Virus genome (UHGV): UHGV-0077154
Direction: 5' to 3' (one strand)
DNA from: a virus
Length of the DNA: 13,459 nt
The notes beneath the pieces are model-generated. The model was not told the origin of the DNA and did not search any database. It saw only the letters and a program-made list of their open reading frames with translations. Position 1 is the stretch's first letter. Every line of letters begins with the position of its first letter. Positions 1 to 13,459 of this stretch are shown here, in pieces. Made by a program: the position numbers and the translations under genes.

Positions 1-54
1 GAACGAGAGCTTCCCAAGCTCTATACGAGGGTTCGATTCCCTTCGCCCGCTCCA
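1..54 (+). tRNA. glyU: 3' 54 nt of tRNA-Gly (anticodon CCC); the 5' ~20 nt lie outside the window
   Basis: Sequence gaacgagagcttCCCaagctctatacgagggttcgattcccttcgcccgctcca matches from memory the 3' part of enterobacterial tRNA-Gly1: anticodon stem-loop AGAGC/TTCCCAA/GCTCT, T-arm GAGGG/TTCGATT/CCCTT, acceptor 3' strand CGCCCGC, discriminator T, CCA at 52-54. One extra matching base (g at position 1) compared with the right-hand copy suggests this is the genuine gene. Confidence 0.8.
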
Positions 55-85
55 GTCTCCTGATAAATCAACAAGTTATGATTTA
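2..85. repeat. attL: direct repeat, 60 bp perfect (2-61) plus 24 bp imperfect extension (62-85)
   Basis: 2-61 is identical to 13376-13435. The following 24 bp (62-85 vs 13436-13459) differ at only 3 positions, so 55-85 matches 13429-13459 at 28/31. Confidence 0.8.
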
Positions 86-89
86 TCAG
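60..89. promoter_or_regulatory. 9-bp perfect inverted repeat CTGATAAAT-N12-ATTTATCAG just past the tRNA end; candidate recombinase binding site
   Basis: ctgataaat (60-68) and atttatcag (81-89) are exact reverse complements separated by 12 bp. Confidence 0.35.
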
Positions 90-621
90 TTAGTTACGTT
101 GCCCCGCTTTAGCAGGTACAACTTAAACTACCCATTGTTCTACGCCCGCACCTGTCGCGTGATTGGTCTGTGGTACAAGGGAGCATATCATCACGCTGGC
201 GGTGGTTCCAAGTTCTTACCGCGACAGTACAACAACGAACAAAAAGCCGCATACCTGGCATAACTCCCGAACTGATTGATCACACGCATTTAAGCCCGAT
301 GTGTGGCCCTATGAGCCACGTAAACAGGTGAATAGTGGTAATGCCCCGGTAGCTACAGATCCGGCTCTGCCAGCGCTTCGCTCACGCTCCGAAAGGTACA
401 CGAGCACCCTGATAAGGTGTGATCCATCTGACAATCTGATGATGTCGCTACGCTCCGCTTGTTGCTTGTACCACTAACGGGGCTTTATGGTTTCTATTGA
501 CTTAAATTAGATAGTTGCAAGGAAATAAACTAAGGATAATTTAAGTGTTGAGCGGTTTACTCATACTGCTTGAGGGCAGTATCATTACAACATTAATGGG
601 ATTTTTAAGGGACTGATGTGA

Positions 622-2101: not shown

Positions 2102-2124
2102 CCAATATGAAGTAAAGTAAGTAA

Positions 2125-2334
2125 CTATTTTTCGTTCTCTGATGCCTCAAACGTCTTGGAGTGAGGGCAGGACTGGGAGCGCGTCACCAGCGTGAACAGA
2201 TAAATGTTGCTTTCGTAAGTGCAAAGCCGTTTTCCGCCCTGTAACTCTTGTTCGTCGGGGTTGCTCATGGTGATTTTTCCTGCATGAGCCGCCAGCGGCA
2301 GCAGTGCCACAACAAATAGTAAAATTTTCTTCAT
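2125..2334 (-). CDS. Small signal-peptide protein (~69 aa), function unknown
   Basis: MKKILLFVVALLPLAAHA|GK... is a typical Sec signal peptide with an AHA-G cleavage site; the mature part has 2 Cys. The track ORF 2125..2340 begins with GTG; ATG at 2334 is the more likely start. Weak SD. Confidence 0.4.
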   Translation of the reverse strand: MKKILLFVVALLPLAAHAGKITMSNPDEQELQGGKRLCTYESNIYLFTLVTRSQSCPHSKTFEASENEK

Positions 2335-3325
2335 TTCCACAACCTGCCCCGTAGGTGTCCCGGCTCTTTATCCTCCAAGTTTACATTCTCCTGTTGAAAA
2401 TATCCCCGGCTCTGTTGGTGATCTGCTAGACCGTCAGCCCAGGCCCTCGGTGAAAAGCGCTTTTCTTCGCCAAATATCGCTACGTTATGCCTTCAGCGAC
2501 ACGCCTCACTGCAACAAGCAGTGCAGTTACACAATGCTGCTTTGGGCTGAGGCAAGGGAGATAACTTGATGTTTTGAAGTGCCTCTGTTCACTAATTGTA
2601 CAACCATTTAACATATTGTATCTTATAAGTACTTGACTGGAATGGTCAGGTATTGCTTTTCGGAGCGTTGATGCGAAGCGGAGTACACAACAACGATTTG
2701 ATCAACAGAAGGAAAGCATTCGGGAGGATTTGAGGTGAGTTCTCTTGTTCAAGGATTTTGGATGAGTTTGTCCGGTCACCACACAATTTCAGGTTTCAGG
2801 CCTTTGAAGCTGCCAGCGCATCTAACACGATGAAAGAGCATTTTTCTCTTTATCAGCAGAAAAAGAGCTACTACGGCGACGTTACCACAACGGGGTGAAG
2901 AACTATCGTCACCTGGCGAAATTCTCCCGCCCTTGCAGGTCACGGATACGTACCTTTTCCCGCACCAGCGCAAGCCTTCTCACCAATAGCCCCGTATGCT
3001 CCACCAGAAGCGCTACAGCGCGTCATCTCCACACAATTGTAAACTACACACCCATAGCACAGCGCCCCGCTGAGAAGCTCTGACACGCCCAGAAATGGAT
3101 GGTTTTTCGTTGATTTTGCGAAGAAAATTAATTTTTTCGGTATGGAAGGGCGGATCGGTAAACTGGTTTGACACGCATTTGGTTGACATATTTAACGCAT
3201 CCAGCCCCTGCGCGGGTTCGTTGTGTATCCGATACCATAACGATCACCACACCACACAGGCGAGCCAGTGACAACAGACAGGATTTTCTAGCAATTAACC
3301 GCAATTAACAGGTATTAAAGCTCTA

Positions 3326-3697
3326 TTATTTCCCGCCGAAAATCCAACCGATGATGGCACCGATTATCGCAGAGCGGGTCTCACCTGCTGCTCCTTTGAG
3401 AACGTTAATAACTGCATCGCCTGCACCAGGTGCCTGCTGTTGAAGTAAATTCAAACCACGAGGTGTTAACTTGGCGGCGGTATCCATGTCGGTTGAAGAG
3501 ATTATCTCCGTGTAACCCATATCGCTGAGAGCCTGGAGTGTGTTGCAAAGCAGGTCAATCTGAGTTCTGTCTCCTCTGGGCTTCCAGCCGAAGTCTGAAA
3601 ATTCGAAAGAAGAGTAAGCCGGATAGTCCGCAAACAGTTTCACCAGGATTCCAGTTGCCATCTCGTTAAAGCTGTCTTTGCCTTGGACGAATTCCAT
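3326..3697 (-). CDS. Hypothetical protein (123 aa) with C-terminal Gly-rich hydrophobic tail (tail-anchored?)
   Basis: Good SD (AAAGGAAA, about 8 nt upstream of ATG on the minus strand). C-terminus SAIIGAIIGWIFGGK looks like a single TM/GxxxG segment. Transcribed divergently from the iteron/promoter control region. Confidence 0.6.
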   Translation of the reverse strand: MEFVQGKDSFNEMATGILVKLFADYPAYSSFEFSDFGWKPRGDRTQIDLLCNTLQALSDMGYTEIISSTDMDTAAKLTPRGLNLLQQQAPGAGDAVINVLKGAAGETRSAIIGAIIGWIFGGK

Positions 3698-3821
3698 AAT
3701 GTTTCCTTTTGTTCACTGATTGAACGAGGTTACTTACTTACCGCTGGAAGTGCCAGCAAGAAGGGATGACGCTGTGCTGTTAATCACTAGGTGAGGGGGT
3801 GTCTTCTACCAGAGGGGAGGC

Positions 3822-3916
3822 CATTGGTAAAGAATCTTAACTAACGTTAGTAAAGATCCTTAACCAGCCATTAGTAAAGAATCTTAACTAACCATTGGTA
3901 AAGATACTTAACCGTA
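3822..3916. repeat. Four tandem ~24-bp iterons (consensus about CATTG-GTAAAGA-ATCTTAAC), followed by an AT-rich stretch (3917-3970)
   Basis: GTAAAGA recurs at 3827, 3850, 3874 and 3898 (spacing 23/24/24 bp), with conserved flanks cattgGTAAAGAatcttaac. Downstream AT-rich DNA contains TAGATCA x2 and CTATATCA x2. Confidence 0.7.
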
Positions 3917-3985
3917 CTATATCACTTACTAGATCATCTTTAGATCACTGCCTATATCAGTAAAAACATTAAGGTCAAAGACAGA

Positions 3986-4001
3986 TTGAACATGCGTTCA
4001 A
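3986..4001. promoter_or_regulatory. Inverted repeat TTGAAC-ATGC-GTTCAA, operator-like
   Basis: 6-bp arms are exact reverse complements with a 4-bp spacer; located in the divergent control region. Confidence 0.35.
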
Positions 4002-4296
4002 TTGTTGGAGTTGTTAGGTGTTATGTAGACAGGCTTCGCCTGTTTACACTCTGTGTGGAAGACAAGCGCAAGCGCGTCAGTCCAATGTGGATCGAGCACG
4101 GCGCAGAGGAGCTTTAAACGCGACGTAACTCCCCCCTTGGAGGGGCGGCGCACCCCCCTCAACCCTGCGCTCTAACAACATCTCTAGAGTCCTCTATCGC
4201 GTTCTGAGCGTCTTTCTCTTATTGTTGGTGACTTTGTACCGTTCCGCTTACAGCGTTGAATCTGAAGCGTCTGAGAGCGTTTTGTGATTACGGGGC

Positions 4297-4410
4297 TTGA
4301 CAAAGAAAATGTATGTGTATAAGGTTGCGGGGTATTGACACAAAACATTTATATCTCTTTATTCATTAAATGAGTTATCGGTTGACAAAGAAACTAATTT
4401 ACTATAAAAT
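4297..4410 (+). promoter_or_regulatory. Three tandem TTGACA-containing repeats/promoters upstream of the rightward operon
   Basis: TTGACAAAGAAA at 4297-4308 and 4382-4393, TTGACACAAAAC at 4335-4346. The third has a good -10 (TAAAAT at 4405-4410, 17-bp spacer); the first has TATAAG at 4318-4323. All are oriented toward the CDS at 4469. Confidence 0.55.
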
Positions 4411-4468
4411 ATATATTATCAAATGAGATGATTTTATGACTAAACAATAACTTAAATAGGAGAGATAC

Positions 4469-4897
4469 ATGGGGAAACCTGTTCTGTTCGATTTCTCGAG
4501 CGCCACTGCCTCAGAGATTGTCGCTGCAATCGATGCAAAAATTACCACAGCTCAAAATCTGCACGCCTTCCGCACTCGTATGGGTGGTGCCAAGAAAGCC
4601 GATAAGCTCTATCCAGCTACTCGCGAAGCACTGAACATCATTAAACGCCTGCGTCAGCAAGCGAAAGACGCAAAAATCATCCGGGATATTCTTAAACCGT
4701 ACTCAGCAGAGTTGGCAAAAGGCCGTGATGTTATGGAAATCATTGAACCAGTGCTGTCTGCCTGGCGTGTCTATTACGCCTCTCATGGCATTGGTTTGAT
4801 GAATGAGCAGATCCTCCTGTTGAAAATGATTGAGGCGGGCGGTGAACTCGAAGGTATTACCGGAAAACCCATTCCCGAACTGACCACAACCGAATAA
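4469..4897 (+). CDS. Hypothetical protein (142 aa), first gene of rightward operon
   Basis: Strong SD AGGAGA with a 5-nt spacer to ATG; no family recognised. Confidence 0.7.
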   Translation: MGKPVLFDFSSATASEIVAAIDAKITTAQNLHAFRTRMGGAKKADKLYPATREALNIIKRLRQQAKDAKIIRDILKPYSAELAKGRDVMEIIEPVLSAWRVYYASHGIGLMNEQILLLKMIEAGGELEGITGKPIPELTTTE

Positions 4898-5072
4898 CCA
4901 TTCTCTTCTTTACGGTGCGAAGCACTTTACCAGAGGTAAACACCTCCGGTGCTATTAGCTTTACTCTGTTGGCAGCAACGCCACCAAACGAAATCGCCGT
5001 AAACACGGCTCCTTACCCCTGATCAATTCCATGATCGCAGGGGCGCACCCGCATATCTAACGCACAGGAGAG

Positions 5073-5264
5073 ATGATTGTGAAACTGTCACTAGACGATG
5101 AAACATATGCAATTTTACGCGAAGAATCTGACCGTTTGGGGATGCCAGTTCCGAGGATGATCCGGAACATGTGCCAGAACCTGGCGAAACACATTCAGAA
5201 ACGCAATGAACAACCACTGACGAACCCACAGGGAGAACAACATGACAGAGACAGTAGAAGCTAA
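5073..5264 (+). CDS. Ribbon-helix-helix-like small DNA-binding protein (~61-63 aa)
   Basis: IVKLSLDDETYAILREESDRLGMPVPRMIRNM fits the beta-strand plus two-helix pattern of CopG/Arc/MetJ-type RHH proteins. GGAG lies 8 nt upstream of GTG at 5079, which may be the true start rather than ATG at 5073. Confidence 0.55.
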   Translation: MIVKLSLDDETYAILREESDRLGMPVPRMIRNMCQNLAKHIQKRNEQPLTNPQGEQHDRDSRS

Positions 5265-5886
5265 TCTGCCAGACGAACAGGACGGCACTTTTGATCGCAA
5301 TTATACCGAGATTAAGCGCTTGAAAGTGTTGGTTGCCGACGATGGAACTAAAATTCCGTTCAGCGCGAACATGAAAGTAGTCTACGCCTACCTCTACACC
5401 TTCCAGACAAATAAAGAGCGGCGGAACTACCCTGAGCCAATTTATCCTAATATGGAAATAATCGCGTGGGAAAATGGCATTACTAAACCCACGGCGCAAA
5501 AGGCTGTGGATGATTTGATGCGGGCGGGGGTGTTGATTAAGGACCAAATTCAGGTTGGGAGCGGGTTTAAGTCCAACAATTACGTTGTGTTGAAACCCTC
5601 GAAAGTGGTGGCGCGTGGCGTCACTCCACCGCATCCAAATGCTTCTAAATATTCAACTGCCGAGGAGAGCGGTAAGAATGAACAAAAACGTGCTGTGGTG
5701 GAACCTGCCGCGCCTGTTGCTGGAAAACCAGACGGCATACCTGTTGTGGATATTCCTGTCGATGCTGATGTACCTGCCGATGATGATGCGGTGATCGGAG
5801 ACTTTAGTGATCCTTACCTTGATGCTGAAGTAAAAGAATGGCAGAAACAAAAACATAGTGGAGGATTGAATTGTGTGAACACGTAA
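5242..5886 (+). CDS. Putative winged-helix-like DNA-binding protein with acidic C-terminal tail (214 aa); candidate iteron-binding initiator or regulator
   Basis: SD GGGAGAA 4-5 nt before ATG; overlaps the upstream gene by 23 nt. Segment MEIIAWENGITKPTAQKAVDDLMRAGVLIK resembles a wHTH; C-terminus is D/E/P-rich (DIPVDADVPADDDAVIGDF). Function is inferred only. Confidence 0.6.
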   Translation: MTETVEANLPDEQDGTFDRNYTEIKRLKVLVADDGTKIPFSANMKVVYAYLYTFQTNKERRNYPEPIYPNMEIIAWENGITKPTAQKAVDDLMRAGVLIKDQIQVGSGFKSNNYVVLKPSKVVARGVTPPHPNASKYSTAEESGKNEQKRAVVEPAAPVAGKPDGIPVVDIPVDADVPADDDAVIGDFSDPYLDAEVKEWQKQKHSGGLNCVNT

Positions 5887-6347
5887 GCGTTGAACTGACC
5901 GCAGATGAAGAACAAAAGCTATCTCGCCTTTTCTCCGTCCTGGAGAAACCGACATATAAATCCCGATCCAAACCTTCCGATCCGGAAACACAACGCAAAG
6001 CCCGTTTATTGCTTAATCGTGGATTTTCACCGCATATTGTCGCTAATACCCTAGATCTGCCGTTCGCTGAAGTCTGGCGGCTCGCACGTCAAAAACAAGC
6101 GGTGACCTGGGCGATGATGACACCGACAGCCCGGACAGAATTTGTCCGTGAAATGTGGTCACATCGGATGCACCCGGAACAGATCCGCAAGCGTTGCGAT
6201 GGTCTGTCATACGTCAGTCTGAGATATTACCTGCATAACGCCGGGATCACTGACGCTGAAATGTTGGGTTACTACCCAGACGTGTTCGTGAATATCTGCA
6301 AGCTGCCGACAGTGAAGAAGAAGCGCACTAAGTGTAAGGCCCGTTAG
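5871..6347 (+). CDS. Hypothetical basic protein with HTH-like segment (158 aa)
   Basis: TTG start 6 nt after GGAGG (5860-5864), overlapping the upstream gene end (coupled translation). KARLLLNRGFSPHIVANTLDLPFAEVWRLARQ is HTH-like; lysine-rich C-terminus. Could be a regulator or a small-terminase-like DNA-recognition protein; not resolved. Confidence 0.55.
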   Translation: MCEHVSVELTADEEQKLSRLFSVLEKPTYKSRSKPSDPETQRKARLLLNRGFSPHIVANTLDLPFAEVWRLARQKQAVTWAMMTPTARTEFVREMWSHRMHPEQIRKRCDGLSYVSLRYYLHNAGITDAEMLGYYPDVFVNICKLPTVKKKRTKCKAR

Positions 6348-6349
6348 GG

Positions 6350-6365
6350 TGAACGTTAACGTTCA
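6350..6365. promoter_or_regulatory. 16-bp perfect palindrome TGAACGTTAACGTTCA
   Basis: Exact self-complementary 16-mer immediately after the stop codon at 6347; shares the TGAAC/GTTCA half-site with the palindrome at 3986-4001. Confidence 0.4.
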
Positions 6366-6511
6366 TCACTTTGTGACCGGATCGCCAATCCAAATAATCC
6401 CACATCGGGAGCCAATGAACTTTGAAGCAATCCTTTCTTACCTGCCCGTTGTCTGGCTGGCGTATCGCTGCGTCCGTGATGGGCTGATCCTACTTTGGAG
6501 ACACCATAAAA

Positions 6512-6892
6512 ATGACATTGAACAGCATTAAAAATGCTCTGTTTGCCGCTATGCACGGCATGACACCGGAGGAATACGAACTCCAAAAGGCGCGGGACAA
6601 TCTCAAGAGCGTCACCGATAACTTTCTGGATCAACATCCGGAGTTGCTCAAATCAGCCTCGTCTGACACCCCCACGGATAAACGGGGCGAAGCCCTCTCG
6701 CCAATGCGAGACACCTTTGGTGCTGAACAACGGATTAAAAAATCTTTGGGCGCTGATAGCCGTCCGGCGGTAAGTCATACCGCTGATCACATCGATCCTG
6801 AAATGCTGGCGAAAGCTAAAGCAGCGGCTGCTGCTCTCGCAAAATCTGACCCTGATCGTTACGGCAATATCATCAAGCAGCAGGGGGTGTGA
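6512..6892 (+). CDS. Hypothetical protein (126 aa)
   Basis: ORF with GGAG about 11 nt upstream; its stop overlaps the start of the next gene (GTGATGA), suggesting translational coupling. Ala/Lys-rich C-terminus. Confidence 0.55.
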   Translation: MTLNSIKNALFAAMHGMTPEEYELQKARDNLKSVTDNFLDQHPELLKSASSDTPTDKRGEALSPMRDTFGAEQRIKKSLGADSRPAVSHTADHIDPEMLAKAKAAAAALAKSDPDRYGNIIKQQGV

Positions 6893-9036
6893 TGGCGAAT
6901 GGCAATATCATAGTGACTGAAACCGTAAACGAGGTGACATGGTCTGTCGATCGGACAGCCTTCGGTCGCGCCCTGAAAGCTGTTAAATCCATCAAGGCTG
7001 CTCATGAGAAACCAGCTAAGGCGCTTGAGAAGGCCCAGAAGCGGACCGTCCAGAGTGAAGGCAAAGCCGCACTAGCAGCAGCGAAAGCCCAGACAGCGAA
7101 GCTACGCCAGGCTGAACAATTGTCTAAACAGCAACAGAAACAAGCTCAGATACAAGCCAAAATGGAGCGGGACGCAGTAGCCCACGCCAATAAAATGACC
7201 TCATTACAGGCGCGTCAGTTATCCCAACAGGAACAGGCAGCACGTCAGAATGCCCGTTTAGCAGCAATATCTGAAAAGGTGAGACAGGCGAGTCGCTCCC
7301 GCGCGATGACCTACACCCCAAACATGGGCGGTCAACATTACGATCCTGGTCTTGTTTCCCGTCAGACTGACGCAATGAACCGTGGTCACGGCGCTGTTGC
7401 TGCCGACATCGCAGCCACCAAAAAGGCGATGGCCCTGGAGGAGAAGCGCCAGCGTGAGAAAGAGGCAGGACTTAAGCGTGAGGTGACTTATTACAACAGT
7501 TTGCGCCGTAGCGCTTTGACTCTGGCAAACGTGAACGGCGCTGACGTTGCAACCCGTTATAAAGCGATCAGTGCAGCAAAAGAGGCACTCAAAGCCCAGA
7601 AAGAAGAGCGTTATACGGTCGAAGAGACCCGTTTCGAAATGGCCCGTATCACTACAGAATTACGCAAGCAGGCTCGTCTGCAACAACGTATTACCCGTGA
7701 GCAGAAAGCCGCAGGTGTTCGTGCTGGTCGTGTACGCACAGAAAGCCGTGGTGGAAGTGTAGGTCTGGCTGCCGCTGGTGTTGTTGGTGGTGCGGCGTTA
7801 GTAGGTAGTATGGGCGTTTCTCGTGTTGGTCAGACCCTTCAGGGAAGCCTTGAGCGTTCTCGCGATGTGAAAAAACTCCAGCAGTATGGGATCAGCAACC
7901 TTGAGTTCGCAGCACTTCAGGATCTATCAATGAGCCGTGTTGGTTACTCACTGAGTGCTGACAAGCTGGCTGACCTCAACAAGGACACAACCGAAAAGGC
8001 CGGGGAATTGCTGAATACTGGCTCTTTCAAACGTAACAAGAAAACTGGACAGGTGAATTTCAGCGGCGGTGGTGAGTTTGCAGATATCATCAATAACGTA
8101 CTGACCTCCACCAACGGCAACCAGAAGGTAGCCCAAAAGGTGATCGGGGAACTGCAAAAACTGGATTTTCCAACATTTATCACTTATCTAAAGCAATTAC
8201 AGAAAACTTTCGGCTGGACTGATCGACAGGTGCGACACCTGGCCGAGGCTGTGAATGATGGTTCGGTCTTCCTCGAAGTGTTCAATGATGAGGGGCAGGG
8301 ACTTATCCAGCGTATGAATCAACTCGCTTCTGAAGGATGGACCCTATCTGATGCACAGCAGGCCAACCTTGATAAGCTGGCAGCTTTGGGTGCTGAGTAC
8401 AGTCGCGTGCAGATGTCGCTTGCTGACCACTTCAGCGCCAGCTTCGTGCAGGGTCTGGGAGAATATGCAGCTAATACTGACACTCTACGTCAGAAGATGA
8501 CTGGACTGATCCCAATTTCCGATGCTCTCGGCGTTGCCCTTGGTGAGCTAACCACCAACATTCTCTCCTTCGCTGGTCGAGTCGGTGAAGAACTCAAGAA
8601 AGGCGCGACACTGCCGGATGCAGTCTACAACACCGTAGTGGATGACTCTGCAAATAGCACCGCCGATTGGATTAAGGAAAAGACCGGATTTGATCCACGC
8701 AGCATCGGTCAGACGCTCAAACAGATTTACCCGTGGCTGGATAGTTTCGCTCCGAGCAATATCGGCTCAGGCACGGCGTATAACGATCCAGCGCTAGCGT
8801 TGAATGTTCCTGGTTTCAACTCAATACAACCCCAGCAACCAACGTTTACGATTCCGACAATTGACAGCATGACGCAGCGACAGCCGATTCCTGTTGCGGT
8901 CACTGGCGAAGCTGAGATTAAACTCTCACCGCTTGATATTAACGTGAATGACGGCGCTATTAACGGTTTGATTGATACAAAACTGAGGAGCTATGAGCAG
9001 GCACAGAACAACATGATCCTTGGTATTGCTCAATGA
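6889..9036 (+). CDS. Large coiled-coil protein with central Gly/Ala-rich hydrophobic segment (715 aa); tape-measure-like or scaffold-like structural protein
   Basis: N-terminal ~270 aa are A/K/Q/R-rich heptad-like repeats (KAQTAKLRQAEQLSKQQQKQAQIQAKMERD). Central segment GGSVGLAAAGVVGGAALVGSMGV is TM-like. Sits immediately upstream of the D/E-like capsid genes. ATG at 6892 is the more likely start (GGGGG 4 nt upstream). Assignment is by architecture only. Confidence 0.55.
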   Translation: MMANGNIIVTETVNEVTWSVDRTAFGRALKAVKSIKAAHEKPAKALEKAQKRTVQSEGKAALAAAKAQTAKLRQAEQLSKQQQKQAQIQAKMERDAVAHANKMTSLQARQLSQQEQAARQNARLAAISEKVRQASRSRAMTYTPNMGGQHYDPGLVSRQTDAMNRGHGAVAADIAATKKAMALEEKRQREKEAGLKREVTYYNSLRRSALTLANVNGADVATRYKAISAAKEALKAQKEERYTVEETRFEMARITTELRKQARLQQRITREQKAAGVRAGRVRTESRGGSVGLAAAGVVGGAALVGSMGVSRVGQTLQGSLERSRDVKKLQQYGISNLEFAALQDLSMSRVGYSLSADKLADLNKDTTEKAGELLNTGSFKRNKKTGQVNFSGGGEFADIINNVLTSTNGNQKVAQKVIGELQKLDFPTFITYLKQLQKTFGWTDRQVRHLAEAVNDGSVFLEVFNDEGQGLIQRMNQLASEGWTLSDAQQANLDKLAALGAEYSRVQMSLADHFSASFVQGLGEYAANTDTLRQKMTGLIPISDALGVALGELTTNILSFAGRVGEELKKGATLPDAVYNTVVDDSANSTADWIKEKTGFDPRSIGQTLKQIYPWLDSFAPSNIGSGTAYNDPALALNVPGFNSIQPQQPTFTIPTIDSMTQRQPIPVAVTGEAEIKLSPLDINVNDGAINGLIDTKLRSYEQAQNNMILGIAQ

Positions 9037-9132
9037 TGAAACAGAGGGTGGCGAATTCGTCGCCCCTATCTCAACACCACAATGCGTATGTATCAAATTT
9101 AGCGACAAATCAAATACTTTTCGTGAAATTTG

Positions 9133-9161
9133 TTGTAAATGATAATCATTCGTGTTAAAAT
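9133..9161 (+). promoter_or_regulatory. Sigma70-like promoter (TTGTAA-17-TAAAAT) overlapped by a Fur-box-like element
   Basis: AATGATAATCATT at 9138-9150 matches the central 13 of the 19-bp Fur consensus GATAATGATAATCATTATC (14/19 overall); -35 at 9133-9138, -10 at 9156-9161. Confidence 0.4.
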
Positions 9162-9167
9162 AATATA

Positions 9168-9542
9168 CAAGGTGAATTACAACAGCCAAATGTTTTTCCC
9201 TTCTCCTTAGGAATCAAAGTGCGCTTTTCCCAGAGCGCCTTTTCTCATACAGCCAATATCCGCACCCTCTCACGGTAAGGTTAGGCCATTGCCGCTGGCT
9301 GTATCAGAAAAGCATCGCAGAGCGATTAGCCAGCAGGCTAACCCGTTCTCGTGTGTAGAAAATTTCCACCTAAGGTGGATTTGCCAAAAGTCCTGTCCTC
9401 CTCGGCGGGCTGTCAGCCGGACACTAACGGCATCAGGTGGCAACGTTTTTGGGTCTCCTTACCCATTCTTTGGAGCGTTGCCGCCTCCTCATTCCTACCA
9501 GTGAAATTCACACCGGACGACTCTCCGTCCGGTCACTTTTTT
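9168..9542 (+). ncRNA. Candidate non-coding transcript/leader between the Fur-box promoter and a strong terminator; possibly a short ~80-nt form ending at a weak hairpin (9221-9246)
   Basis: No credible ORF here (the track ORFs are R/P-rich with no SD). Several hairpins: TTAGCC-AGCA-GGCTAA, TCCACC-TAA-GGTGGA, GCGCT-N8-AGCGC followed by CTTTTCTC. Ends at the intrinsic terminator 9513-9542. Confidence 0.3.
9513..9542 (+). terminator. Rho-independent terminator
   Basis: Stem CCGGACG (9513-9519), loop ACTCTC, stem CGTCCGG (9526-9532), then TCACTTTTTT. Confidence 0.7.
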
Positions 9543-9610
9543 CATCGGAACAATTCTAAAGGCTGGCCCTGTCGCCGTTTACGGCTCAAGCAGGCGCTGG
9601 CCTTTTGTTT

Positions 9611-9622
9611 ACATAGCTATGT
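9611..9622. promoter_or_regulatory. 12-bp perfect palindrome ACATAGCTATGT about 22 bp upstream of the D-like gene SD
   Basis: Exact self-complementary 12-mer; candidate operator/activator site for the capsid operon. Confidence 0.35.
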
Positions 9623-9645
9623 GAAATTTAACGGGAGTTAATTAT

Positions 9646-9987
9646 ATGAAAATGGGAAGCCTTGAGCGCTCTTACAATGACGTGATCGCGTATGCAGCCG
9701 ATCCGAATTTTGACCGCAAGACTATTACTGTCGATCTAGCTGTAGAAGTCCAGCCGGGTAGTTGCATTACCAGCACTGGAGCTGCTTATGTCTCTGGTGA
9801 TGACTGCCTGCTGGTCCTGAGCCACCACAGGGCCGAAGATGCTGCTCATATCATCGTTGCTGATCGCGGGATTTACATCAAACAAGACACCATCACCGCT
9901 GTTATGGGCGCTACCGCTGGCGCTAATGCTATTGCCGCACTCACCAAAACGGGCGCAATCCGTACTAGCGCACCGGACGCAGAATAA
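9646..9987 (+). CDS. Lambda gpD-like head decoration protein (113 aa), tentative
   Basis: Size (113 aa vs 110 for lambda D), position directly upstream of the E-like gene, and a Gly/Ala/Thr-rich beta-type composition (TITVDLAVEVQPGSCITSTGAAYVSGDD...TAGANAIAALTKTGAIRTS). SD GGGAG 8 nt before ATG. Confidence 0.45.
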   Translation: MKMGSLERSYNDVIAYAADPNFDRKTITVDLAVEVQPGSCITSTGAAYVSGDDCLLVLSHHRAEDAAHIIVADRGIYIKQDTITAVMGATAGANAIAALTKTGAIRTSAPDAE

Positions 9988-10005
9988 TAATAAGGAGAAG
10001 ACAAC

Positions 10006-11040
10006 ATGGGACTATCAACCAATTTCAGCTACGCGGATTACACCAACACCTTTGTGAACATGGATGCAAAGAACACTTTGCTGTCCACGCTTAATGTTTT
10101 CAGTGATCGTCAGACTTCTGCAAGTCCGAAGGTGAGCCTCGATATCATTGATGAAGTCGCTCAGAAGGTGGCAAGCTCTGTTAATCGTTACGGTTCAGAG
10201 TGGTCAACCATTCCTAAGCGTAGCGCTAGCAATCACCTGATTGAAGCTCCACTTTATGCTTTTCAAGACCGGATTACAGCGGCAGACGTGCAACCATATC
10301 GCAAACCAGGCTCCGACCTGCAAATGTCTGTAATGGATGCGGTCACTTCTTCTGCTGTCGCAATGCACGATAAGTACATGCGTACTAAAGAGAAAATTTT
10401 CGCTGACGCACTCTTCCGAAATACTGTCGAAGCGACCTACACCCAGCAGCCGATCATTTCCTGGGAAGATGAATTTGGATACCAACAGGCAACCGGAACG
10501 ATCAAAACCAGCGTTAGCTCTGGTGACCCACTTCGCAGCCTCGATGATGCAGTAACCGCTGCTAAAGTGCGCATGGGGGGCCTGGCTGGTCAGCTTGATG
10601 GATTTATCCTGTTTGCAGGTAGCAATGTTTATCGCGGCATTAAGTATCACCCTGATGTTCGTCAGAATGTTCAGTTCGGTGTGCTTGATCGGGATGTTCT
10701 GTTTAATAAAGAAGTGCTTCCGGCATTCTCAACATTCATCATTGAAAATGTTCGAGTGGTGGAGGTCACGGATCAGGCACTTTACGGAATTGGTCCGGAT
10801 GAATCCTTCCTGGTTCCACGTTTCAGCCGCCCACTGTCCTCTGATATTGCTCTACCTTTCGGTTATGTAGCAACGGCTACCAGCCGCAATCTTGATCTGG
10901 CATTTGCTGATCCGGTTGATTTCCGTATCTGGAGCGTACAGGACAAGTTTAAGAACGTGGAGCTATTCGCGGAAAGCTCAATCTTGCCTGTGGTGTACCG
11001 TCCGGATTTCGTTACAAAACTGACGAACGACGCAGCGTAA
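10006..11040 (+). CDS. Major capsid protein, lambda gpE-like family (344 aa)
   Basis: Strong SD AAGGAGAAG. Length 344 aa vs 341 for lambda E. C-terminal region ...VVYRPDFVTKLT resembles lambda E ...LADPDEFVSVQLA. Gene order decoration-then-capsid as in lambda. A hairpin at 11053-11074 (TGGGGC-N10-GCCCCA) follows the stop. Confidence 0.6.
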   Translation: MGLSTNFSYADYTNTFVNMDAKNTLLSTLNVFSDRQTSASPKVSLDIIDEVAQKVASSVNRYGSEWSTIPKRSASNHLIEAPLYAFQDRITAADVQPYRKPGSDLQMSVMDAVTSSAVAMHDKYMRTKEKIFADALFRNTVEATYTQQPIISWEDEFGYQQATGTIKTSVSSGDPLRSLDDAVTAAKVRMGGLAGQLDGFILFAGSNVYRGIKYHPDVRQNVQFGVLDRDVLFNKEVLPAFSTFIIENVRVVEVTDQALYGIGPDESFLVPRFSRPLSSDIALPFGYVATATSRNLDLAFADPVDFRIWSVQDKFKNVELFAESSILPVVYRPDFVTKLTNDAA

Positions 11041-11121
11041 GACAGCGGATTTTGGGGCTGACTATTTGGCCCCACCGTGAAGAATGGCCTGAAAAGGCGA
11101 GGCAAAGAAGAGGTGATTACT

Positions 11122-11325
11122 ATGAAAATTCAATTTCAGACTAACAACGGCTTCCCGTTGCTGACAGTTGCAGACGAGCGCGTTTTAGATTTTCTGAACG
11201 TTAGCGCAGTGTGTCGGTTCCTGAAGGTTCCGCGTTCCTCGTTCATGATGGACGTTGAGCAATACGGGCTTGAAAAGGCAATCAGTGAAGCCCTGCTGAA
11301 GTTAAGAAAGAATAAAAATTGTTAA
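11122..11325 (+). CDS. Hypothetical small protein (67 aa)
   Basis: ATG at 11122 preceded by GAGGTGA with a 5-nt spacer; the track ORF's upstream Met at 11077 has no SD. No family recognised. Confidence 0.5.
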   Translation: MKIQFQTNNGFPLLTVADERVLDFLNVSAVCRFLKVPRSSFMMDVEQYGLEKAISEALLKLRKNKNC

Positions 11326-11379
11326 TAATCAATCTGTTGGTATTTGTTGTCAAAAGAATCATTGTGTTTGTTTTTCGCG

Positions 11380-11450
11380 CATTTACTTGACACTATGATG
11401 CAGATTGCGTAGGCTGAACATAAAATAATTGACTATTCTATATTCAAACC
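11380..11450 (+). promoter_or_regulatory. Putative promoter region for the small AT-rich cassette
   Basis: TTGACA at 11387-11392 with a weak -10 (TAGGCT, 17-bp spacer); AT-rich surroundings; precedes a strong SD at 11499-11504. Confidence 0.3.
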
Positions 11451-11509
11451 GGACTTCAACTTGAGAATGCTTCGTTCCTACATCTCCCTTCAAGGGGTAG
11501 GAGGATTAT

Positions 11510-11719
11510 ATGAACTTTGATATGCGTACAAACCAAAATTGTGCATCTTTTTTTAACCCAGCAACCAAGGCGTTTGTCGTCGTCGATTCGTTTGACAACT
11601 ACGAGTTCGATGTTCGTGCTGGTACTTTATCACGCACTGAATTTGTAGGCACAATCACAGCTTCGAACGATGAAGAGTTGAACAAGAAATTAGCTGAGAT
11701 CACGGCTGCTCATATATGA
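11510..11719 (+). CDS. Hypothetical small protein (69 aa), cargo cassette gene 1
   Basis: Excellent SD AGGAGG with a 5-nt spacer; AT-rich codon usage; stop overlaps the next start (ATGA). Confidence 0.65.
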   Translation: MNFDMRTNQNCASFFNPATKAFVVVDSFDNYEFDVRAGTLSRTEFVGTITASNDEELNKKLAEITAAHI

Positions 11720-12090
11720 TAACTCAACAGCAAATTGATGATTTAGTTGCAGATATTAACGATATCTTAGAAGAAGATAGAGCTAGACTGAAGATGTCAT
11801 TTCATTTTGCTGTTGATAGACTCAATGATCAGCGTAACAAACCTCCAATCACGCTAGATGAATTGAGAGTGATTTTTACAAATTTCATTGAACAACACTT
11901 GCAGACCATTTTAGGCAAAGATGAGGGGTTCTCCTTCACTATTAAGTGCCAGAAATCAGGTATTGCTATACCTTGCGCCATAGAGCATGAACTTGAGATT
12001 GGTGCAACGTGGGTAGTACAGCAAGTGATCACCATCATGCGGAATCCGAACTTTAACCCATACCATGGTGATGTCATCTTCGAAATCTAA
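11716..12090 (+). CDS. Hypothetical protein (124 aa), cargo cassette gene 2
   Basis: Translationally coupled to the upstream ORF; AT-rich; followed immediately by a strong intrinsic terminator. Confidence 0.65.
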   Translation: MITQQQIDDLVADINDILEEDRARLKMSFHFAVDRLNDQRNKPPITLDELRVIFTNFIEQHLQTILGKDEGFSFTIKCQKSGIAIPCAIEHELEIGATWVVQQVITIMRNPNFNPYHGDVIFEI

Positions 12091-12092
12091 GT

Positions 12093-12118
12093 AAAAAGGC
12101 GCAATAGCGCCTTTTTTT
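12093..12118. terminator. Bidirectional rho-independent terminator (AAAAAGGCGC-AATA-GCGCCTTTTTTT)
   Basis: Perfect GGCGC/GCGCC stem with a 4-nt loop, flanked by an A-run and a T-run; sits between the convergent cassette gene 2 and integrase 3' ends. Confidence 0.8.
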
Positions 12119-13313
12119 ACAAATCCGGATAACACGCCAACTCGACATACTCCGATAGTTCCTTCATCCCTGGCCCTTTGCTGTAGGTTCTGAATGCTTC
12201 GGTTTTCGCTTTTTGTTCGGTATGTCCAGTGATGGCTCCGATCCGTTGTTCTGGCACCCCTGCACGGTCTAAGCAGGTGATGAACATTCCCCGTAAGCTG
12301 TGAAAACATTGCCGATCTGTAGCGGTTGGCAATGTGCTGTCACGTAGCCGGGTAAACTTTTGGCTGTACCACGGACCCCGCTTACCATCCTTCCGAATGA
12401 TGTTATTAGACTGAGCCAGAAGATATTCACCGCTGTTATTTGCCAGATGCTTATCAACAATCCCCATCAGCAGCGAGTGGATCGGAACATACCGCACCCC
12501 GGCTACAGTCTTGGACTTGCTGACAAAGAAACATCTGACACCCTCCAACATTACAATTTCATCCCGCTTGATGCTGGCGATCTCATCAAGTCGCATTCCT
12601 GAATACAGCCCAATCAGTATGACATCGCGTAGAACGTCATCCGCTTCTCTGACAAGTGTTTGCAATTGTTCAGGTTCAAACGGCTGATAACTTTCTATCG
12701 TGCGACGTGCTTCGAGGTTATGACCGTGAAACGGGTTACTGTCGGGGATTGCGTCATATCGACGTTTGGCGAACTCGTACAGACTCCCTAAAGAGGTTAG
12801 CCAGTTTTGCACGGTCTGCGGTGCTGCCTTTTTCTGTTGGCCTTCAATGAAGTCTGTAACCGTTCTGCGTCCTATCTTGTTCAGACTAATATCAACTTTA
12901 CCGATACTCTGGAGAAATACTTCCACCGCTCGCGCGGATTTGCTGAGTGTGGAAAATGCCCGACGTTCACTATAAACCGTCATGTATTCATCACGGATGA
13001 CTGCCAACGTTGGGATAGGGGAGACTGCTACAGGCGTACTCTTGGCCTGTTTGATTGTGGTGTGGAGTGTGGTGATCGCATTCTGGATGCGAATGTCTTC
13101 CCGATCAGGATTCAACAGGGCTTTCAGATTGTTGAACTCAATCAACATGTGATTTCTGAAGTGACGAGCCTTAAGGATGTCTTTTGTCCCGGTGGATTTT
13201 CGCCAGGCTCGTTTGTTGTCAAACAGGTGACGCATGTACGCAGGTACAAAGACCTGAAAGATCCATACGCCCGAATGACTTTGAAAAAGATACTGATTGT
13301 TCTTGATAGACAT
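12117..13313 (-). CDS. int: Tyrosine recombinase / phage-type integrase (398 aa)
   Basis: C-terminal catalytic motifs: GMRLDEI (Arg box I), HSLRGMFITCLDRAGVPEQRIGAITGH (H-x-x-R box II), FRTYSKG (catalytic Tyr). SD AGAGGA about 8 nt upstream of ATG; gene lies next to attR. Confidence 0.9.
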   Translation of the reverse strand: MSIKNNQYLFQSHSGVWIFQVFVPAYMRHLFDNKRAWRKSTGTKDILKARHFRNHMLIEFNNLKALLNPDREDIRIQNAITTLHTTIKQAKSTPVAVSPIPTLAVIRDEYMTVYSERRAFSTLSKSARAVEVFLQSIGKVDISLNKIGRRTVTDFIEGQQKKAAPQTVQNWLTSLGSLYEFAKRRYDAIPDSNPFHGHNLEARRTIESYQPFEPEQLQTLVREADDVLRDVILIGLYSGMRLDEIASIKRDEIVMLEGVRCFFVSKSKTVAGVRYVPIHSLLMGIVDKHLANNSGEYLLAQSNNIIRKDGKRGPWYSQKFTRLRDSTLPTATDRQCFHSLRGMFITCLDRAGVPEQRIGAITGHTEQKAKTEAFRTYSKGPGMKELSEYVELACYPDL

Positions 13314-13375
13314 GATTTCGATCCTCTAAAATCACGCCATCAGGTACAGCCATATGTACAATGTCGGGATGGAGT

Positions 13376-13459
13376 AACGAGAGCTTCCCAAGCTCTATAC
13401 GAGGGTTCGATTCCCTTCGCCCGCTCCAGTCTCCTCATAAATTAACAAGTTATAATTTA
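13376..13459. repeat. attR: partial tRNA-Gly 3' copy (60 bp perfect to 13435) plus imperfect extension to the window end
   Basis: Identical to 2-61; the sequence upstream (caatgtcgggatggagt) does not match the tRNA 5' half, so this is the truncated copy. Confidence 0.8.

Follow-up and report, generated by a model that had tools for sequence, protein, structure and literature searches.

The att repeat of an integrative element at glyU extends past the tRNA end, probably into the arm of an older, decayed relative

Introduction

Why should the two ends of an integrative element go on resembling each other beyond the tRNA gene fragment that they share? The question is raised by a 13,459-nt stretch of viral DNA (UHGV virus genome UHGV-0077154), which we analysed over its whole length and call the window. 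An earlier note on this DNA had pointed out that its two ends are still about 88% identical over the 24 bp that follow a 60-bp perfect repeat, and had offered two explanations: either a second related element or remnant follows attR, as in a tandem array, or the integrase recognises a longer, degenerate site. The reading that we favour, with a probability of about 0.9, is that the element in the window integrated into the intact glyU gene of a lineage that already held a decayed, related element, and that the extended repeat consists of two P′ arms.

Results

The window holds a complete element whose terminal repeat runs past the tRNA end

A repeat search of the window found an 84-nt direct repeat with 96% identity between positions 2–85 and 13376–13459. 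The first 60 bases of the two copies are identical, comprising the 53-nt 3′ part of a tRNA gene and the heptamer GTCTCCT, and the last 24 nt contain three mismatches (G/C, C/T and G/A), which leaves 21 of 24 bases matching (87.5%) and bears out the identity first reported. At least 21 matches in 24 positions would arise by chance with a probability of 2e-10 at p = 0.25, or 1.6e-7 at p = 0.35; the extension of the repeat past the tRNA end is thus confirmed as genuine and beyond chance. The right copy reaches the window's final base, and its true extent is unreadable from the window alone. We read the downstream context from two contigs that carry the window's last 31 nt and are 99.9–100% identical to the window over 11.3 kb: one from Enterobacter hormaechei (L005, GCA_036581965.1; 99.9% identical over 2117–13459) and one from a metagenome (L009; 100% identical over the same positions).

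One complete integrative element of 13.37 kb (E1) makes up the window, with attL at its left and attR at its right end, located at the glyU gene for tRNA-Gly(CCC), as identified by ARAGORN on full copies at related loci. Positions 1–54 (+ strand) are the 3′ part of glyU at attL (tRNA nt 21–74; Rfam tRNA match at 1–51), and contain the left copy of the 53-nt att core (2–54, +) as well as the anticodon loop TTCCCAA (11–17, +) between stem arms at 6–10 and 18–22. The right core copy, found by repeat search and Rfam at 13376–13428 (+) in attR, is the displaced 3′ fragment of the host's glyU and is identical to the tRNA of the E. hormaechei empty site (L092, L094 and L096). Both copies in the window are partial; ARAGORN calls no tRNA there, and Rfam detects both. 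Across related loci, ARAGORN finds a full tRNA-Gly(ccc) at attL in nine loci from six hosts and none at attR. The identity block begins at tRNA nt 22, which puts its start 4 nt 5′ of the anticodon stem, and where the flanks are unrelated it stops at CCA. Islander has described an anticodon-centred attP class of tRNA-targeting islands with a 3′ tDNA fragment (PMC4383910), and the geometry of E1 matches it: a tyrosine integrase lies inside the element beside one att site, and an intact tRNA at one end is paired with a 3′ tDNA fragment of the same orientation at the other, both being class A features.

The integrase (398 aa; 12117–13313, − strand) has a DUF6538 N-terminus and a Phage_integrase catalytic domain (Pfam PF20172, and PF00589 at 3.9e-9, above cutoff; PHROG 1 integrase at 1.2e-35). 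It starts 62 nt from the right repeat and is transcribed away from attR. The P arm of attR and attP (13241–13375, +) lies between the integrase start and the core, and overlaps the start of the gene. The P′ arm of E1 (55–520) is non-coding, and is found with 0–2 mismatches to window 1–621 in the attL loci of five hosts (K. michiganensis, E. coli, E. cloacae, E. hormaechei and K. aerogenes).

The first gene past the left arm is an anti-phage defence cargo gene, PD-T7-4 (622–1257, +; PADLOC E = 4e-98 over its full length; Pfam DUF4145), whose homologues often overlap an integrase gene according to the paper that named it (bioRxiv 10.1101/2022.05.12.491691). Together with a 272-aa ORF, it occupies a slot between the arm (to ~520) and the backbone (from ~2335). 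This slot looks like a cargo and defence hot spot, at which related elements and the remnant described below carry other genes. The interior of E1 holds a replication-initiator-like ORF, a 715-aa ORF (6889–9036, +) that matches tape-measure-like PHROGs only, and a lambda-E-type major capsid gene (10006–11040, +; Phage_cap_E at 4.6e-14). A 113-aa ORF stands directly upstream of the capsid gene, the pair spanning 9646–11040 on the + strand. E1 shares with cfPICI-like satellites its small size (13.37 kb, in a range of about 10–15 kb), an integrase and a major capsid gene of its own. Among the subset of E1 ORFs that were scanned, portal, protease, connectors and small terminase had no Pfam or PHROG match, and on that set of ORFs the capsid-encoding E1 would not fit the cfPICI gene set.

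Several other observations concern E1 as a whole. Four direct repeats of ~24 nt (GCCATTGGTAAAGAATCTTAACTAAC and variants, with a 23–24-nt period) at 3820–3916 are flanked by divergent ORFs, and they form an overlapping palindrome too; from their arrangement, they look like putative iterons or operators. Rfam found nothing in the left arm besides the tRNA parts, and a match to STnc40 at 12060–12117 was sub-threshold and was disregarded. A phage database matched E1 and the remnant through the tRNA fragment only, and a limited literature search found no papers on either.

The shared core ends at CCA in other hosts

An exact-sequence look-up found the identical 398-aa integrase in 39 blocks of the sequence collection, and at all ten integrase loci among the matches listed the element DNA is >99.9% identical to the window. 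The hosts in which E1 occupies glyU are E. coli, K. pneumoniae, K. michiganensis, K. aerogenes, E. cloacae and E. hormaechei (L001–L010 and L103–L112; hosts were assigned from flanking proteins). The near-identity of its copies in four genera points to a very recent spread of a single defence-carrying, capsid-encoding element. In complete genomes of E. coli, E1 is absent and there are just 84–87% identical relatives of its integrase region.

In most hosts, the flank after attR departs from the left arm at the first or second base past CCA. The first bases after attR's CCA are AATTCAAG and AACTCAAG in Klebsiella (K. pneumoniae and K. michiganensis), ATTTATCTTC in E. coli, GACCTTTCTT in E. cloacae, GAATTTCTCT in K. 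aerogenes and GCTTTTCCTG at locus L010. These five attR flanks outside the window's own context are mutually unrelated and unlike window 55 onward at their start, and local alignments of the arm with the E. coli, E. cloacae, K. aerogenes and L010 flanks score no better than shuffles. Because the same arm stands at attL across hosts whose attR flanks differ, the arm (55 to ~520) belongs to the element. Because the attR flanks diverge right after CCA, the shared core is the 53-nt tRNA 3′ part only, and because E1 has integrated beside flanks unlike its arm, its integrase needs no similarity 3′ of CCA. Arms 93–96% identical to that of E1 are also found at glyU in related elements from E. coli (EC24), Kosakonia and Enterobacter, where the native flanks differ.

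These observations bear on the proposal of an extended, degenerate core, according to which the integrase recognises and needs ~84 nt and the attB site naturally resembles attP past the tRNA. Such a core would account for the perfect identity over the 7 nt past CCA (GTCTCCT) and for the 87.5% identity over the next 24 nt. It could also draw on the native Klebsiella flanks (L001 and L002, reverse strand, first 75 nt past CCA), which in K. pneumoniae and K. michiganensis have GTCTCCTGA 7 nt after CCA, and on 33 nt of the K. michiganensis flank that weakly resemble the arm's hairpin region (0/500 shuffles). However, the identical integrase is found beside E. coli, E. cloacae, K. aerogenes and L010 flanks that are unlike the arm after CCA, and in the window's host the similarity extends for ~415 nt and is followed by collinear backbone, far past any core site. 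The probability of an extended core is therefore close to negligible, and the suggestion that the integrase recognises a longer site does not hold up for an identical element that sits beside five other, unrelated flanks. The short Klebsiella similarity could be an ancient scar, or a hint at the origin of the arm's first bases.

The sequence beyond attR continues as a probable, collinear remnant

Positions 13429–13459 (+) are the chromosomal flank (B′) and match the element-free glyU flank exactly; they are also the first 31 nt of a second P′ arm, that of the remnant. In the downstream sequence, similarity to the left arm of E1 runs for ~415 nt past the window (345 of 397 aligned bases, or 87%, against window 55–520), at ~90% identity per 50-nt bin and with one 51-nt deletion relative to window 277–327. 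The homology starts at the first base past the attR core, and the remnant arm is collinear with the left end of E1. In L005, the arm is followed by two cargo genes, encoding a 104/123-aa membrane protein and a 269-aa DUF4225 protein, in the slot that PD-T7-4 and the 272-aa ORF occupy in E1. Past this cargo, 94 nt match the segment of E1 backbone beyond its own cargo region (2335–2427; 83% identity by blastn against the L005 downstream sequence), in collinear order. The remnant is therefore made up of a ~415-nt P′ arm, a two-gene cargo and ~270 nt of backbone; it continues for ~1.95 kb past the window and ends ~1979 nt after CCA, where the E. hormaechei chromosome resumes with a 47-aa ORF, an isochorismatase, a Toluene_X porin and an HTH_46 regulator. 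The metagenome contig equals L005 at 1577 of 1578 bases past CCA, covering the arm and most of the cargo before the contig ends. The attL side on L005's contig (L110) has 0 mismatches to window 1–621.

Could these bases instead be the start of a complete second related element, of which the window shows only the first 31 nt? Arm similarity that starts immediately past the attR core is what tandem arrays display, and a genuine tandem of E1 exists elsewhere, where another integrase element is joined to its arm (L109, see below). In L005, nevertheless, the genes called within 9.9 kb past attR include neither an integrase nor any capsid or replication gene, and the tRNA core does not recur there, even with 5 errors allowed in the last 24 nt; conserved E. 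hormaechei chromosome is back ~2 kb past CCA. A true tandem array at this locus is therefore very improbable. The search for another integrase or island downstream, which the earlier note had recommended, came back empty over these 9.9 kb, and its suggestion that a second related element or remnant follows attR stands for a remnant, as the collinear ~415-nt arm indicates, but not for a complete element or an array, since there is neither an integrase nor a third tRNA fragment. [quoted passage not shown]

We call this sequence the probable remnant of an element from its collinearity with E1 and its polymorphism among strains, rather than from a known parent; no intact relative with this particular arm and cargo was found. 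A search by the remnant's DUF4225 protein found the identical protein on one short Logan contig only, with no glyU context.

The DUF4225 gene and its 104-aa partner also recur with 90–95% identity at unrelated loci (L087 10001–11251 and L088 10001–11121): one context is the inside of a P4-type integrase island, and the other is the trp/yciO region beside the trp operon. The pair behaves as a roaming two-gene cassette.

The arm carries a co-varying hairpin and a repeated 8-mer

Beginning 6 nt past the tRNA's CCA end, the left arm carries a hairpin (60–89, +) with 11-nt arms at 60–70 (CTGATAAATCA) and 79–89 (TGATTTATCAG) and an 8-nt loop; the inverted repeat noticed here earlier is real, although its arms had been given as 9 bp. 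The hairpin folds at −12.2 kcal/mol (z = −4.4), and none of 200 shuffles folds as well. Its counterpart in the remnant is degraded (−3.5 kcal/mol), which fits a copy in decay. Four further glyU arm variants have kept the hairpin intact: that of the integrase-bearing element of E. coli EC24, L067 (Enterobacter), L081 (Kosakonia, an arm shared with the E. coli GDSC2227PM remnant) and L101 (the E. coli TKEC21-59 remnant). Across seven arm variants, compensatory double changes occur at 3 of 11 pairs, a number that 3 of 500 shuffles reach, and in L101 the hairpin arms differ in sequence yet still pair (CTGAATAATC/GATTATTCAG). One of the three mismatches in the direct repeat is half of a compensated pair (C-G to T-A), and another breaks a pair.

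Such co-variation speaks for a hairpin that forms base pairs and against a half-site for a protein. The location of the hairpin, 6 nt past CCA, suggests that it may serve the rebuilt tRNA gene as a trailer or in a terminator-like way; in a terminator scan, it was not a canonical intrinsic terminator. As a separate matter, we considered the 11-8-11 hairpin as a recombinase core site and rejected it: it lies outside the block that is common to unrelated attB flanks, and its arms co-vary.

The 8-mer CAGGTACA is present in the window at 4 copies, compared to 0.34 expected (a ~12-fold excess; 0/200 shuffles). Three copies on the + strand (113–120, 13241–13248 and 13341–13348) flank the att cores within ~190 nt, and the fourth is on the − strand at 5769–5776. 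By number and placement, the copies at 113, 13241 and 13341 are candidate arm-type integrase sites. The copy at 113 is retained in the remnant arm, and by keeping it the remnant gives the attR of that host an attP-like P-core-P′ layout.

Element-free strains carry the same flank, and others replace it

We located element-free loci through the host isochorismatase gene. Element-free groups make up 12 of the 31 contigs read: in E. hormaechei L092, L094 and L096 and in nine similar places, actS is followed by a complete glyU and the remnant, and E1 is not there. Joining window 1–54 to 13429–13459 gives the 85 nt of the empty site without a single difference. Over the following 2.9 kb, these loci are 99.9% identical to the DNA downstream of attR in L005 and contain no integrase. 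Other E. hormaechei strains (L095 and L097–L100) have a different segment of 1.1–1.9 kb past CCA (starting with GAATTTCCCC), after which homology rejoins the common sequence at the same point, 1979 nt after CCA. Since the flank is present in some strains and replaced in others, the remnant is a strain-variable islet, not ancestral chromosome. At L098 and L099 (5900–7250), an Hcp and Ntox44 toxin pair and a 141-aa ORF stand in place of the remnant.

The direction of descent could conceivably be the reverse, the flank being ancestral chromosome from which the element family captured its P′ arm, with nothing ever integrated downstream. Element-free genomes do carry the flank without an integrase, tRNA-targeting elements must once have captured a tRNA 3′ end, and the native Klebsiella flanks are weakly similar to the arm's first ~70 nt. 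Against this, the flank comes and goes among E. hormaechei strains with other segments in its place, and it has a cargo slot at the position of E1's cargo, followed by the 94-nt match to 2335–2427. Its DUF4225 gene pair is a cassette found at unrelated loci too, and its hairpin is degraded compared to those of all the element-borne arms. In addition, the arms of the E. coli, Kosakonia and Enterobacter elements, which are 93–96% identical, stand beside different native flanks. We regard reverse descent as highly unlikely. The earlier note had named the comparison with an island-free glyU as the observation that could show the downstream sequence to be native chromosome with an accidental likeness to the island arm; the sequence is indeed native to that lineage, but the likeness is not accidental, and we read it as descent from a related element. 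As the remnant is common in element-free E. hormaechei, it could be named native sequence for that lineage.

Insertion and decay recur at glyU

Other loci show what else has entered this gene. At L093, a different DUF6538-integrase element has an att core consisting of the last ~24 nt of glyU only. At L091 (5440–5600), another island, which encodes a TIR protein, ends in a degenerate 23-nt core, and the same remnant arm follows that core immediately. At L109 (2300–2500; ENA ERZ27262646 k119_63454), an element with a 416-aa integrase is joined via a ~23-nt core to the arm of E1; this is a true tandem, in which E1 is without the anticodon-side part of its left core. Insertions such as those upstream of E1 at L109 and of the remnant at L091 strip the anticodon-side half of the left core from the distal element, which, judging from the junctions, should no longer excise. 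Core stripping by elements with a 3′ crossover is a possible route to remnant formation.

Decayed arms are found in other hosts as well. In K. aerogenes L007, the flank of E1's attR holds a homologue of the distal arm (window 193–518, 77% identity) and then an IS3. In E. coli GDSC2227PM (L090 18055–19460), a 520-nt arm truncated by an IS1 stands behind glyU, and in E. coli TKEC21-59 (L101 16061–20140) the gene is followed by another arm variant and then an IS3 and an IS1. The two E. coli cases are independent arm-only remnants, and serial insertion and decay at glyU is recurrent. Such recurrence agrees with how tandem arrays have been described: once both cores are restored, either can take in a second element (PMC7192596). 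Across Enterobacter, Klebsiella and E. coli, glyU is a hot spot where integrase elements of at least three kinds accumulate. The IS1 in GDSC2227PM abuts yqeG, and the ETT2 type III secretion region is deleted there.

We also scanned genome contigs for GCCCGCTCCAGTCTCCT, which returned 74 matches, of which 71 were chance ones in unrelated phyla; the relevant ones were in Enterobacter intestinihominis, Enterobacter sp. Cy-643 and Kosakonia arachidis.

Discussion

The proposed course of events begins with an older related element, which would have inserted at glyU and later lost its distal part by deletion, leaving its left end in an E. hormaechei lineage as a remnant that has neither an integrase nor a distal att site. 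The attP of E1 would carry a 53-nt 3′ end of glyU that starts just ahead of the anticodon stem and finishes with CCA. The E1 integrase, rather than RecA, would then have inserted E1 into the intact tRNA gene ahead of the remnant, with the crossover probably in the anticodon loop, so that the tRNA would be rebuilt at attL from element DNA and the host's 3′ fragment would stay at attR. With this crossover geometry, the DNA 3′ of the crossover is the element's at attL, and at attR it is the 3′ half of the host tRNA with its downstream sequence. As E1 would have been inserted ahead of the remnant, the flank of attR (13429 onward) would be a diverged copy of the attL arm (55 onward), and the three mismatches in 24 nt would follow from the divergence of the two arms, which is ~13% overall. 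The window's host is probably E. hormaechei, or a metagenome strain of that type. Entry through RecA would be compatible with the 60-nt identity and the 87% identical arm as well, and would leave the sequence identity of the parts unaffected.

When an att repeat apparently extends beyond the tRNA end, this is a signature of an older related insertion, and not of a longer recombination site. In tandem arrays at tRNA genes, each end has its core again after integration, and one of these cores then receives a later element (Islander/TIGER; PMC4383910, PMC7192596); likewise, the internal junction in those arrays joins the integrase-side arm of one element to the other arm of its neighbour.

Defective, or 'grounded', prophages and islands that have lost their integrase and one att site are immobile, and their cargo persists in the lineage. 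The one unusual feature here is that the surviving piece is the att-proximal arm, which is why the att repeat of the newer element appears extended. In tandem polylysogens of lambda, the junction between neighbours is likewise P-core-P′, and so attP-like. Unlike in lambda, the P′ part here is 13% diverged and partly decayed, and the second 'prophage' is truncated. CIMEs keep both att sites and are mobilisable in cis, whereas the remnant here is without a distal att site, and the elements concerned are small capsid-encoding islands rather than conjugative ones. For the ICESt1-type elements and CIMEs of Streptococcus thermophilus, tandem accretion followed by deletion reportedly leaves integrase-less cargo remnants, as Pavlovic et al. 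are said to have described in 2004. Tandem accretion, att-site remnants and anticodon-centred tRNA targeting are already well described, and E1 with its remnant is a further example. The findings have practical worth for boundary calling and for the turnover of the glyU hot spot, and leave the understanding of site-specific integration unchanged.

A more speculative set of ideas, which taken together we consider unlikely, is that the remnant is not inert and, separately, that rival islands immobilise each other. The attP-like attR could alter the directionality or efficiency of E1 excision, the remnant-bearing glyU allele could be a preferred landing pad, and the remnant could be kept in many E. 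hormaechei through a useful two-gene DUF4225 cargo. If the second idea were true, a more 3′ crossover in the same tRNA gene, as at L091 and L109, would be a general way for rival islands to immobilise one another.

The repeated arm can mislead the automatic calling of island boundaries, and it breaks short-read assemblies. Two short-read contigs, L086 (from Logan) and L017 (~290 nt past glyU), end inside the arm, as they would if those genomes had the arm in more than one copy.
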